A DNA stretch of 64,000 bases from Candidatus Binatia bacterium (GTDB taxonomy: Bacteria > Desulfobacterota > Binatia > UBA9968 > JAJDTQ01): the NCBI GenBank assembly GCA_963666515.2, contig OY762897.2:1056001-1120000 (forward strand), read 5' to 3'. The translations under genes were made by a program, and so were the position numbers. Below, piece after piece: positions 37,832 to 42,847 of this stretch (position 1 is its first letter; each line of letters opens with the position of its first letter). The notes below the pieces were generated by a model. The model made no database searches, was not told the DNA's origin, and saw only the letters and a program-made list of their open reading frames with translations.

Positions 37832-39106
37832 ATGACCCTCAGGAAAGCCGGGTCCAATTGGGTCGAGGGGGATCGGTTCTTTGACCGGGACGCCGAGATT
37901 AGAACTCTCACGGAGCGGATCCGGGAGGGGACCCATACATTGCTGACCGCCCAGCGTCGAATGGGCAAGACGAGTCTGGTTCGGGAGACACTACGCCGCT
38001 TGGGTGAAGATGGTCGCTTCGAGACGATATTCGTCGATCTGGAGAGCGCTAGCACCCCGGCGGACGCCATCGCCGAGATCGTGCTCCAGTCGAGGTCAGC
38101 GCGGGGAATATGGCAGCGACTCAAATCCTGGTTCGCCAACATCCCCGATGCGGTTGGTGCTCGGCTCGATACCCTTGGCGTTCCCTTCTTGCGATTGAAG
38201 CTGAGAGGCGGGATCGATGCCGGAAACTGGCGACAAAAGGGTGATCAGGTCTTCGCGGCCTTGGCGGAAAACGATCGGCCGGTAGTACTCGCAATCGACG
38301 AGTTGCCGATTCTCGTCAATCGCCTGCTCAAGGGGGACGACGACCTCACCACACCGGAGCGAAGGCAGGAAGCTGAAATTTTCCTGAGCTGGCTTCGAAA
38401 GAACGGTCAAGAACATCAAGGACGGGTCTGTATGATCCTTTCCGGCAGCGTAGGTCTTGGCCCGATCCTGCGGCATGCAGGACTCAGTGCCCAAGCGAAC
38501 ATCTATTCCCCTTTCGATCTGAAACCCTGGAACGAGCAGACGGCCGTCGCCTGCCTTGGCGCGCTGGCGGAGACGTATGATCTGGACCTTTCCCTTGCCG
38601 TGCTGCGGGACATGTGCCGTCGGCTGCGGTGTCAGGTTCCCCATCACGTACAGCTATTCTTCGACAATCTTCACGAAGACCTGCGCCAACTCGGCCGGCG
38701 TGAAGCCTCACTGGAAGATGTGGATCGCGTGTACACCGGTGCGATGCTTGGCGCCGGGAGAGAGATGGTTCTGAAGCACTATGAGAGCCGACTGAAGATG
38801 GTGCTCGGGAAGGAAGGGTATGGGATCGCCATTGAGTTACTGACCGAGGCAGCGGTCAACTGCGGTCGGCTGCGCCATGATGCCATCGGCCGTTATCGAA
38901 GGTATTTCCTGGCCAAGATTTCGACGCCAAGTCAGGACGAAGCCGGCATCGTTCCGATAGAGGAAGTGCTCCATGTGCTCGAACACGACGGATATCTGGT
39001 GAGGCGTGGCGCCGACGGTTACCGATTCGTGTCGGGTCTCCTCGAGGACTGGTGGCGAGGGCGGCACGGCCAGTCCTTTGTCCCCATCGGCCAGCGTCGG
39101 GTTTGA
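37832..39106 (+). CDS. STAND-like/archaeal-type P-loop ATPase with probable C-terminal winged helix
   Basis: FFDRDAEI, AQRRMGKTS, LAIDE, LEHDGYL...YRFVSGLLEDWW. Confidence 0.82.
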   Translation: MTLRKAGSNWVEGDRFFDRDAEIRTLTERIREGTHTLLTAQRRMGKTSLVRETLRRLGEDGRFETIFVDLESASTPADAIAEIVLQSRSARGIWQRLKSWFANIPDAVGARLDTLGVPFLRLKLRGGIDAGNWRQKGDQVFAALAENDRPVVLAIDELPILVNRLLKGDDDLTTPERRQEAEIFLSWLRKNGQEHQGRVCMILSGSVGLGPILRHAGLSAQANIYSPFDLKPWNEQTAVACLGALAETYDLDLSLAVLRDMCRRLRCQVPHHVQLFFDNLHEDLRQLGRREASLEDVDRVYTGAMLGAGREMVLKHYESRLKMVLGKEGYGIAIELLTEAAVNCGRLRHDAIGRYRRYFLAKISTPSQDEAGIVPIEEVLHVLEHDGYLVRRGADGYRFVSGLLEDWWRGRHGQSFVPIGQRRV

Positions 39107-39121
39107 ACGGGGACTGGAACG

Positions 39122-42100: not shown

Positions 42101-42847
42101 TCGATACTGAGTGGGCTAAACCGGACCGAGGAAGCACTGGCCGTGTACGATGAGGTGGTGCGTCGATTCAATGACACCGAAGGGCCGGTTATTCTTGAAG
42201 AGGTCGTAACAGCTTTCGTCTGCAAGGGATACGAGCTCGGTAACTTGAACCGTCCAGACGAAGCATTGGCCACCTGTGACGAAGTGGAGCAGCGATTCGG
42301 AAACAGCGACTATGTCCCTATCCGCGGACTGACCGAGGACGCGCTCTTAGTGAAAGCGAATATTGAGTTGAAGGATCAGAGATACAGGGCCGCAATCGAC
42401 ACGGCTGGTCACGTACTTGACCAGCACCGCACGGAATCGCCAGAGAACCGATTGGCAGGTCACCAAATCCGCGCAGTGGCGGCCCTTGCGACCGGCAATT
42501 TGTCCGGATGCGAGCAGGACATCAAGGCGATCCTTGCAATTCTTCCGGAAGTTACGTCTCTCTCGAAGCCGATATTCAACACGTTGATGGCCTTCAGCAT
42601 CGAGCTCGGTCCGTCGCGTATGCGGCAAATCATCCAGGCATCGCCATCCGCCAAGTTGCTGTTGCCTCTCACCACAGCTTTGGAACGTGAGCTTGGAATT
42701 GAGTCCCGGGTCGCACGCGAGGTTGAGGAAGTGGCCCAGGACATCCAGCGGGACTTGGCGAAGTTGAGAGAAGACTGGACGATGGCAACGAGTGGGGAGA
42801 AGTTGGCGAGTCCCGCGTCAGTGCATACGGATCCGAAGAATGGCTGA
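39122..42847 (+). CDS. P-loop ATPase-wHTH-TPR protein (14 x 43-aa TPR-like repeats)
   Basis: GPRGSGKTS, LMVEN, LTGGSPR, HTH TREVADRSRLETSKCSAQLARL; repeat consensus LNRPEEALAAFDEVVRRF...ALVNKG. Confidence 0.88.
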   Translation: MAVTARKYNPGFLTDDELVASFCVRTSEFESMVEMLRDCTGSSNPHQIVTGPRGSGKTSLLLRIAAEVRRDSELSSRFFPIVFAEESYEVATAGEFWLECLSRLAAQAPSREGGPDLQRTVEELRTHRDDRTLAERCLVSLLDFSDREDKRLVLMVENLNMMFRDMADADTGWRLRHTLQNEPRILMLASATSRFDEIDNPEHALYDLFRVHTLRPLNTKECAVLWETVSGRCPAPKTIRSLEILTGGSPRLLTIVARFGAVRSFRELMADLLDLVDDHTEYFKSHIESLPPQERRVYLALAELWKPATTREVADRSRLETSKCSAQLARLIERGVVQIKGGTARRKQYYLTERLYNIYYLMRRSRGASGLVEALIQFMASYYSPSELKDLSTRVARDALVSDPETQPLHRAALVSLMALPALAGYRRELLAMIPSDLAEVLDLARLGAAKPDHYRDDQFDEQPEAASAKALLEEAVALDAQNRPEEAVAAYDAVIQRCVGNETSTILELVAAALVNKGAMLLIRLNRPEAALAVFDEVTRRFASSGNPNLWRSVAVSFLNKSAALSVLNRTEEALTAFDEVVQRFGSSETTILLEQVAVALVNKGAMLGELGRPEEALTACDEVVRRFGRNGAPAFCRPVAKAFVNKGMAHKVLNRMEDALAAFDEVVCRFGHSESSAFLDEFATALVEKGIALGRLDRPLEALATFDTAVRRFRDGKDPSLLRQVVKALVNQGVVLAELNRPEDALAALDEAVNRFGSDDTPAFRDLVAKAFVSKGAVLSRLNLWDEAVVAYDEVVRRFGSSGEPALLELVATALVNKGLTLGILNRQEEALATFDEVTRRFGTSKEPALLKLIAAALVARGVALDASNRSDQALTGWDEVVHQFAASDVPAVLEQAAIALVNKASVLLRLNRPEEALIVCDELVNRFEASETPDMSEQVASAFLDKGAALDTLDRPEDALAAYDEVVRRFGASETLGLLESVAKALVNSGSILSGLNRTEEALAVYDEVVRRFNDTEGPVILEEVVTAFVCKGYELGNLNRPDEALATCDEVEQRFGNSDYVPIRGLTEDALLVKANIELKDQRYRAAIDTAGHVLDQHRTESPENRLAGHQIRAVAALATGNLSGCEQDIKAILAILPEVTSLSKPIFNTLMAFSIELGPSRMRQIIQASPSAKLLLPLTTALERELGIESRVAREVEEVAQDIQRDLAKLREDWTMATSGEKLASPASVHTDPKNG

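Follow-up and report, generated by a model that had tools for sequence, protein, structure and literature searches.

STAND/NLR-type proteins such as PH0952 (6mfv) and Avs join a P-loop NTPase to a helical and winged-helix module and a TPR-like sensor array, and archaeal Orc1/Cdc6 proteins, like the PF01637 protein PAB2304 (2qen, 2qby, 1w5s and 2v1u), combine an AAA+ base and lid with a winged helix at the C-terminal end. Hma operons with embedded guest systems have been described in the main account of Payne et al. (bioRxiv 10.1101/2024.01.29.577857), where Septu is the commonest guest and seven of nine tested Hma-embedded candidates protected against phages; the main text of PMC12839542 names such operons DUF499-centred BREX-related systems. 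Here we describe A1-A2, a pair of ATPase genes at positions 37832-42847 of a 64,000-nucleotide stretch of DNA from Candidatus Binatia bacterium (assembly GCA_963666515.2, contig OY762897.2, positions 1,056,001 to 1,120,000 of the forward strand; hereafter, the window). As with the Hma-embedded HEC/PDC candidates of Payne et al., the pair lies between hma genes, on the same strand and with Septu, and homologues occur outside Hma too. The HECs named in the main account of that preprint are ABC-ATPase/nuclease, GmrSD-like or RNase systems, with no AAA+/STAND-TPR pair among them, and neither 'TPR' nor 'tetratricopeptide' occurs in the main text of PMC12839542.

The co-inheritance of A1 and A2, and their nature as ORC/Cdc6-STAND-type AAA+ NTPases with winged helices, are strongly supported. 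Judging from the sequence, we read the pair as an unnamed, effector-less candidate defence cassette that would act via DNA binding, independently of the Hma operon in which it is embedded, and we assign this reading a probability of about 0.5. Defence is favoured because the pair shares its embedded position with Septu and ParDE, is foreign in composition, is patchily distributed with transfer across phyla, and has distant plasmid copies whose surroundings are rich in defence genes. It may be placed as a variant within the STAND/ORC-like sensor kind and is a reasonable defence candidate; if it does defend, a widespread two-gene system would be added to the known repertoire.

A preceding reading of the DNA from its letters and open reading frames (ORFs) alone (hereafter, the sequence-only reading) had known of no named system matching the pair, and no PADLOC v2.0.0 or NCBIfam model for a named system fits it. 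PADLOC gave only matches to mad8 (E = 2e-4 and 4.8e-5), which span about 50 residues at the P-loop; no mad system is present in the window, and MADS was rejected as an identity for the pair. We found no published description of A1-A2; the supplementary clade tables of a STAND census (bioRxiv 10.64898/2026.01.04.697583) or supplementary PDC lists may contain the family.

Architecture and predicted pairing of A1 and A2

A1 (37832..39106, + strand) encodes a 424-aa Orc1/Cdc6-like AAA+ ATPase, and the ORF of A2 (39122..42847, + strand), a 1241-aa ATPase, follows after a 15-bp gap. The sizes, the gap and the motifs given by the sequence-only reading, including the atypical Walker B of A2, were all confirmed from the ORFs. 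In A1, Walker A reads AQRRMGKTS and Walker B VLAIDE (VLAIDELP); the Pfam matches to ATPase_2 (PF01637), AAA_16 and AAA_22 all fall below gathering cut-offs, an NCBIfam scan gave no match, and sequence searches of solved structures returned only P-loop-level matches. The A1 model (pLDDT, a predicted local distance difference test score, 85.9; predicted template-modelling score, pTM, 0.85; 61-row alignment) shows an AAA+ base and lid, with a winged helix at the C-terminus. Its best Foldseek match is PAB2304 (2qen, E = 2.5e-11), followed by archaeal Orc1/Cdc6 and then by ORC, RuvBL and RFC, with E values of 2.5e-11 to 1.5e-9 against 2qen, 1w5t, 2qby and 2v1u. Longer or fused forms of A1 were absent at E ≤ 1e-10 among 8000 candidates, which is weak evidence, and paralogy of A1 and A2 was not borne out by sequence (BLASTP, nothing significant, best E = 0.67). 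The lid region of A1 holds a Cys/His cluster (residues 241-272; window 38552-38650; motif CRRLRCxxPHHVQ) with invariant C241, C262, C267 and H272, and with H271 in at least 90% of sequences. The cluster is a possible metal site, and H271 falls in the modelled A2 interface described below.

A2 comprises an NTPase domain (aa 1-292; 39122..39997), a TrmB/MarR-type winged helix (aa 293-349; 39998..40168), a conserved helical linker reaching about aa 470, an array of 14 TPR-like 43-aa repeats (aa 480-1082; 40559..42367) and an all-helical conserved C-terminal cap in which no enzymatic fold was detected (aa 1095-1241, plus the stop codon; 42404..42847), all on the + strand. In Pfam searches, AAA_16 reaches 36.7 bits (cut-off 32.6) and the TrmB-type winged helix 27.3 bits (cut-off 25.6; E = 3.2e-6); the TPR matches are strong, those to TPR-S and nSTAND weak, and NCBIfam matched only TPR or P-loop fragments. 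The Walker A motif GPRGSGKTS is invariant, and the atypical Walker B, LVLMVEN, has E157 and N158 invariant across 49 aligned proteins, with the hhhh(E/D)N form retained in distant plasmid homologues. W173, R176 and Q180 are also invariant, and R194 nearly so.

The winged helix and the 14 repeats of 43 aa, both proposed by the sequence-only reading, were recovered by Pfam and by a script, respectively: the 14 units are consecutive, with twelve spacings of 43 aa and one of 44 aa, and Pfam TPR_1, TPR_2, TPR_12 and TPR_16 match them. Each unit is modelled as two helices with a longer loop, and the 43-aa period, compared with the canonical 34 aa, is kept family-wide, while the number of repeats runs from 0 to 16 in 75 homologous ORFs. 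This range offers a natural series for relating sensor length to specificity. Two Hma-embedded alleles from the same genus (L008 and L074; 536 and 549 aa) have no repeats at all and keep the N-terminal domain and the cap; L008 also has two ptuA copies. By part, identity is about 42-83% for the NTPase and winged helix, 31-80% for the C-terminal cap and 25-71% for the repeats.

No nuclease, TIR, Sir2 or transmembrane domain was found in A1 or A2 by Pfam, PADLOC, NCBIfam, fold searches or a hydropathy scan, in agreement with what had been seen by eye, and neither protein has a detectable signal peptide. Precomputed Pfam lists likewise gave no effector domain in A2 relatives among the 120 matches listed. 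As a stand-in for full-length A2, we modelled a natural 720-aa homologue (L009; two repeats, 65% identical overall), and the model has a pLDDT of 79, with values above 90 for the repeats and cap and below 50 for the winged-helix stretch. Its best match is 6mfv, a STAND protein with TPRs, followed by Orc1/Cdc6, and the N-terminal half of A2 matches 2v1u and 2qby; no enzymatic effector fold was recognised in the A1 or A2-homologue models. A2 has the parts of a STAND/NLR protein, i.e., a NOD that carries both Walker motifs, then a helical and winged-helix module, and a sensor of C-terminal repeats, as the sequence-only reading had suggested. Unlike Avs and bNACHT proteins, it has no N- or C-terminal effector, its Walker B is of the form hhhhEN, its repeats are regular 43-aa units (0 to 16), and it comes with an obligate second ATPase gene and an operator array of its own; no Avs or bNACHT model in PADLOC v2.0.0 matched it. 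The likeness to archaeal Orc1/Cdc6 extends to two paralogous-type ATPases predicted to pair and to repeated DNA sites beside the gene, whereas the A1-A2 genes are bacterial, chromosomal and accessory, and resemble Orc1/Cdc6 in sequence only at the P-loop.

A complex model of A1 with A2 residues 1-470 gave an ipSAE of 0.65, against 0.00 for the best of three controls; 58 of 80 solved complexes reach this mark, as do 2 of 110 mismatched pairs, counts that are only rough given self-built alignments. Runs agreed in at least 87% of contacts, with partner pLDDT of at least 72. In the modelled interface, A2 residues 173-181 and 194-213 lie against the P-loop region of A1 (42-43, 47, 51, 69-72 and 160), so that the A2 stretch containing W173, R176, Q180 and R194 faces the A1 nucleotide site. 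The contact as modelled is the usual inter-subunit AAA+ geometry. The prediction supports, but does not show, that A1 and A2 bind each other, in line with the sensor/helper pair that had been suggested from the position in a defence slot.

A conserved operator array before A1

The 126-bp spacer before A1 (promoter/operator region, 37706..37831, + strand) contains a sigma-70-like promoter, with TTGACA at 37757, 17 nt and TAAATT ending at 37785, and six 9-bp GTTGSCAAC-related sites. Three of these (37713, 37728 and 37743) lie upstream of the -35 box and three (37787, 37802 and 37817) between the -10 box and the ATG, with 15-bp spacing within each trio, and the last overlaps the GGAG ribosome-binding site. 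The region is conserved across 68 loci from a species-genome scan (described below). In 69 aligned upstream regions the shared layout is a (C)TTGACA box followed by two to four palindromes, CCAACA-N4-TGTTGG, which overlap as GTTGSCAAC in an array that extends to the start codon; by eye, the -10 region lies within the first palindrome. None of the 68 testable loci lacks a site (≤1 mismatch) within 140 nt upstream of A1, and 41 have at least two, compared with 4 of 8896 background windows. Adjacent sites are spaced exactly 15 bp apart in 48 of 57 cases, and when two mismatches are allowed, 15-bp chains of at least two sites are present in 62 of the 68 loci and of at least three in 41; TTGAC is found 10-45 nt before the first site in 50. 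One locus (L015:9790-10000) has an enlarged array, with seven or more tandem 15-bp units of the GGAATCGATGGCAAC type.

The same motif precedes A2-like genes without A1 on Agrobacterium and Sphingobium plasmids, which makes A2 the probable binder, and analogous palindromes precede the pairs on Moraxella and Clostridium plasmids. A2 is thus predicted to bind the GTTGSCAAC array and probably to autoregulate, and tight autorepression would be the simplest reading of the operator. In the own genome, the only chain of at least three sites (≤2 mismatches, 14-16 bp spacing) is the A1 promoter. Shuffled genomes also give 0-2 such chains, and the scan says little beyond the absence of a second array; a scan with stricter cores found nothing, the own promoter included. 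No array lies near the hma or ptu genes, and by eye there are no sites before ptuA, parD or hmaB. The conserved operator array is a new feature of the cassette and offers an immediate and cheap biochemical handle. It also lends support to the earlier suggestion that the pair acts through DNA binding; the alternative offered with it, licensing of the methyltransferase-nuclease, is not supported (see below).

Among 2.9 million viral contigs, the motif occurs in 8 stretches, about the number estimated for chance, and none of them has an A1 or A2 homologue. A four-unit viral array (L083:952-1010 and L089:1848-1905) was set aside as a probable coincidence; it lies inside an amidase-like ORF and encodes LLPTILLPTNLL. 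Downstream of A2 at another locus (L032:13735-13760 and about 14190-14225), two arrays of variant sites (GTTGTCAAC, 15-bp spacing) flank a small ORF starting MKLHYYPETDSLYVEF, which looks DUF2283-like and which may be another module with the same kind of operator.

In the mechanism that we envisage, the A2 winged helix would sit on the 15-bp array and repress the operon, and a protein ligand held by the TPR array would change the nucleotide state of A2. A1 would dock on A2 through the canonical AAA+ interface and supply hydrolysis, as the Walker B of A2 lacks the usual catalytic glutamate, and the ligand-bound TPR array would switch ATP-dependent assembly. The output would consist in the binding or remodelling of DNA, or would be transcriptional, with no killing by an enzyme. 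A more specific form of this scheme, effector-less immunity, is tentative and on balance doubtful: a TPR array of evolvable length would recognise an invader protein and trigger A1-A2 co-assembly on DNA that blocks invader replication or transcription, with no nuclease, NADase or pore, and the same winged helix would silence the cassette at its operator. If true, the logic would be unlike that of Avs-type STANDs: a pair of ORC-like ATPases would work with a built-in DNA operator and without an enzyme effector.

The same features could describe a pair of signal-responsive transcription factors with no defence role. MalT is an ATP-dependent NTPase with a sensor domain that uses repeated binding-site arrays at promoters, and the cassette resembles it in having an NTPase plus sensor and promoter site arrays; A2 would sense a metabolite or protein through its TPRs and assemble with A1 and ATP on the arrays, thereby regulating the cassette's genes and perhaps others at a distance. 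The NTPase/winged helix/TPR architecture, closest to 6mfv, the position of the array at the cassette's own promoter, the mostly housekeeping immediate neighbours, the lack of an effector domain and the pairing of AAA_16 with a MarR-type helix-turn-helix (HTH) in the nearest Atlas clusters all fit such a role. Unlike MalT, A2 has no LuxR-type HTH (none among the best 25 of 34 Pfam families), it has a partner ATPase, and the sites are in a repressor position at its own promoter only. There are no conserved neighbouring target genes and no second own-genome array, and the regulator role leaves unexplained the patchy, cross-phylum mobility and the repeated embedding with Hma and Septu; distant copies lie in plasmid defence islands, and the frequent fragments and frameshifts look like those of a costly accessory gene. 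We regard this explanation, the main rival, as possible, though well short of even odds. Should the pair turn out not to defend, it would still be an unusually mobile, autoregulated AAA+ regulator whose spread over a dozen phyla would call for an explanation.

A replication, maintenance or iteron-type module, i.e., an ORC-like initiator pair on direct-repeat sites beside its own gene, would account for the Orc1/Cdc6-like character of both proteins (including the heterodimer on origin DNA, 2qby), for arrays of 2 to at least 7 sites with a constant 15-bp period and for the presence of the family on plasmids. It is improbable given that chromosomal copies sit among housekeeping genes with no other mobile-element genes, that an integrase occurs in only 2 of 109 upstream neighbours and no tRNA in the window, that carrier plasmids have other annotated replication genes, and that the sites run over the -10 to ATG interval, a repressor position.

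Distribution of the pair and its relation to Hma

A1 has at least 2217 relatives at E ≤ 0.001 among the candidates scored, of which the best 120 are 66-92% identical and unnamed. A profile search of 1.84 billion sequences gave 4186, 1777 and 616 cluster representatives (50% identity) at E values of 1e-3, 1e-10 and 1e-30, respectively, and a word-index search with the N-terminal 460 residues of A2 gave 3056 relatives (705-1275 aa long among the 120 matches listed). The species-genome scan recovered 76 loci, from Binatia, Latescibacterota, Alpha- and Gammaproteobacteria, Acidobacteriota, Gemmatimonadota, Chloroflexota, Nitrospirota, Spirochaetia, Planctomycetota, Thermodesulfobacteriota, Bacteroidota and Chlorobium. 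The co-occurrence of the two genes, on which the sequence-only reading had staked its proposal, is almost complete: the A2 N-terminal domain directly follows A1 in 72 of the 76 loci, and the remaining four have an A1 fragment only (L067, L071 and L075) or end at a contig edge (L070). The A1 match is partial or interrupted in about a dozen loci. No conserved third gene was detected, as no other family is common to more than nine of the 76.

On Moraxella osloensis and Clostridium estertheticum plasmids the A1-A2 order is retained at identities of 21-28%, and A2-like genes without A1 are found on Agrobacterium and Sphingobium plasmids. Within the order, a cassette match is present in 16 of 27 other genomes of the same genus and in none of 95 elsewhere. 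Full-length copies in the genus are mostly 60-70% identical, with some weaker matches, while the backbone DNA is 80-90% identical, and phyla are mixed in a quick IQ-TREE tree of A1. Thus, A1-A2 behaves as a patchy, horizontally transferred accessory module of about 5.1 kb. Between its intact pair and Septu, one locus carries an inverted A2-like fragment of 290 aa on the minus strand (L005:14174-15146), which has a site array of its own and looks like what remains of a second cassette.

The sequence-only reading had offered host interaction as another role for the TPRs, and a eukaryote-like TPR protein for contact with an animal host would suit close relatives that are mostly uncultured metagenome-assembled genomes of many phyla, one with 'Spongia' in its title. 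TPR proteins are commonly reported in symbionts. This role is extremely improbable: neither protein has a signal peptide or transmembrane segment and the ATPase is cytoplasmic in type, conservation is highest in the N-terminal ATPase and winged helix, at 60-83% identity, a DNA operator belongs to the cassette, and relatives also occur in Clostridium, Moraxella, Agrobacterium, Sphingobium and Chlorobium and in strain NaphS2, some of them on plasmids.

That the pair might be a sensor or regulator accessory to Hma, licensing its methylase-nuclease, had likewise been raised from the window alone, where the A2 stop and the probable hmaB start overlap by 8 nt. At five further loci (L002, L006, L012, L014 and L016) the pair also directly precedes hmaB, with hmaC and the DUF7680 gene upstream and hmaB and hmaA downstream. 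However, in up to 10 kb of DNA on each side, only 12 of the 76 loci contain any Hma gene; 64 have none, two of these with Septu only. In L007, from the same genus, an intact pair sits beside a 179-bp hmaB remnant with Hma lost. Promoter and operator belong to the pair itself, neither the hma nor the ptu genes have an array nearby, and the composition shows a later insertion. An accessory role is accordingly quite improbable, and the licensing claim is not supported: because only 12 of the 76 loci have Hma genes, the pair is INDEPENDENCE from Hma, an autonomous pair and not a licensing part of it. All that is left in L071 is PtuAB with the initial 55 codons of A1.

The wider surroundings were profiled with two genes on each side in 60 non-Hma loci, after dropping the 12 Hma-context loci, loci without an A2 match and four loci with too little training sequence. 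Genes were called by our own composition-based script, with some missed or mis-started, and the family counts cover the 25 commonest families without assignment to single loci. An enrichment in defence context, expected by the sequence-only reading, is weak outside the Hma-linked subclade. Among distant copies, that on the Moraxella plasmid adjoins Qat genes, a kinase and a methylase, the A2-like gene on a Sphingobium baderi plasmid (L079) adjoins annotated Pycsar and AbiE genes, and the Clostridium plasmid copy adjoins DUF3800 and GIY-YIG. On Agrobacterium salinitolerans plasmid pDG3-1g (L078, 5286-13195), an A2-like gene without A1 is divergent from two adenylate/guanylate-cyclase genes and a ThiF-family gene.

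Several observations weigh against a defence cassette acting via DNA. The flanking genes at non-Hma loci are mostly housekeeping (by Pfam, 6 of 109 proteins are CoA-transferases and 3 are ABC transporters); among the PADLOC matches listed, PtuA accounts for 3 of 109 upstream proteins, and the 107 downstream proteins gave single matches to a type I methyltransferase, a type III restriction endonuclease, a cyclase, PifA, PDC-S01 and DrmD, so known defence families there might be near chance level. The Hma-linked copies form one 24-row subclade that mixes five phyla in the quick tree, and the embedding may go back to a single event or a few, so that guilt by embedding carries less weight. A tblastn search of 50,697 phage records found no homologue. 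No effector was identified, so a killing or restriction mechanism would be pure inference, and a repressor-position operator with a TPR sensor fits an ordinary signal-responsive regulator equally well. The A2 winged helix on which DNA binding would depend was modelled with a pLDDT under 50, and the complex score may reflect likeness to, or memory of, solved ORC/RFC assemblies. Were the cassette to defend, it would put guilt by embedding to a clean test in a lineage without cultured members.

The Hma island in the window

The order in the window is hmaC, DUF7680, ParDE, PtuAB, A1, A2, hmaB and hmaA, all on one strand, in accordance with the defence slot that had been described around the pair. 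Upstream are hmaC (DUF499 ATPase; 31439-34456; PADLOC HmaC E = 4e-96), the DUF7680 gene (34456-34932), an embedded ParD-position ORF without family match together with a ParE toxin gene (34967..35517), and the embedded Septu genes ptuA (35661-36938; E = 7e-118) and ptuB (36935-37705; E = 2e-51). Downstream are hmaB (DUF1156 methylase; E = 4e-70), which likely starts at ATG 42840 and ends at 45815, and hmaA (PLD-SNF2 helicase; 45819-48980); all are on the + strand. The longest hmaB ORF begins at GTG 42792, and it is the probable ATG 42840 that gives the 8-nt overlap with the A2 stop. The best NCBIfam matches for the hma genes are 'anti-phage-associated' DUF499, DUF1156 and phospholipase-D models, all under cut-off.

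G+C content is about 67% for the window and drops to 58-63% across 34-44 kb. At third codon positions (GC3), it is 0.88-0.93 in backbone genes, 0.78-0.85 in the hma genes and 0.62-0.69 in ParDE, PtuAB, A1 and A2 (0.67-0.68 for A1 and A2 alone), and this lower GC3 marks ParDE, PtuAB, A1 and A2 as later arrivals than the hma genes. Comparison with the DNA of same-genus relatives places the island between two major facilitator superfamily (MFS) transporter genes and its borders near 24558 and 49039; neither the borders nor the rest of the window contain a tRNA.

The ParDE cassette has a TTGACA box of its own (34940-34966) directly before the small ParD-position ORF, which is without a Pfam match. 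Before hmaC, the interval 26590-31442 contains xanthine-dehydrogenase-like, BNR/sortilin-repeat and PolB-exonuclease-like (DNA_pol_B_exo2) genes, with 4-nt overlaps between successive BNR, Exo and hmaC genes. In L007 and L071, from the same genus, this 5.4-kb dehydrogenase/BNR/Exo block lies on the opposite side of the island, and it is therefore a variable region, not fixed backbone. The interval between the MFS and dehydrogenase genes (24559-26003) is low in G+C (0.589 in the 24-26 kb bin) and contains small ORFs without Pfam matches, and its positions 25077-25800 are 78% identical to DNA within the degraded island of L071.

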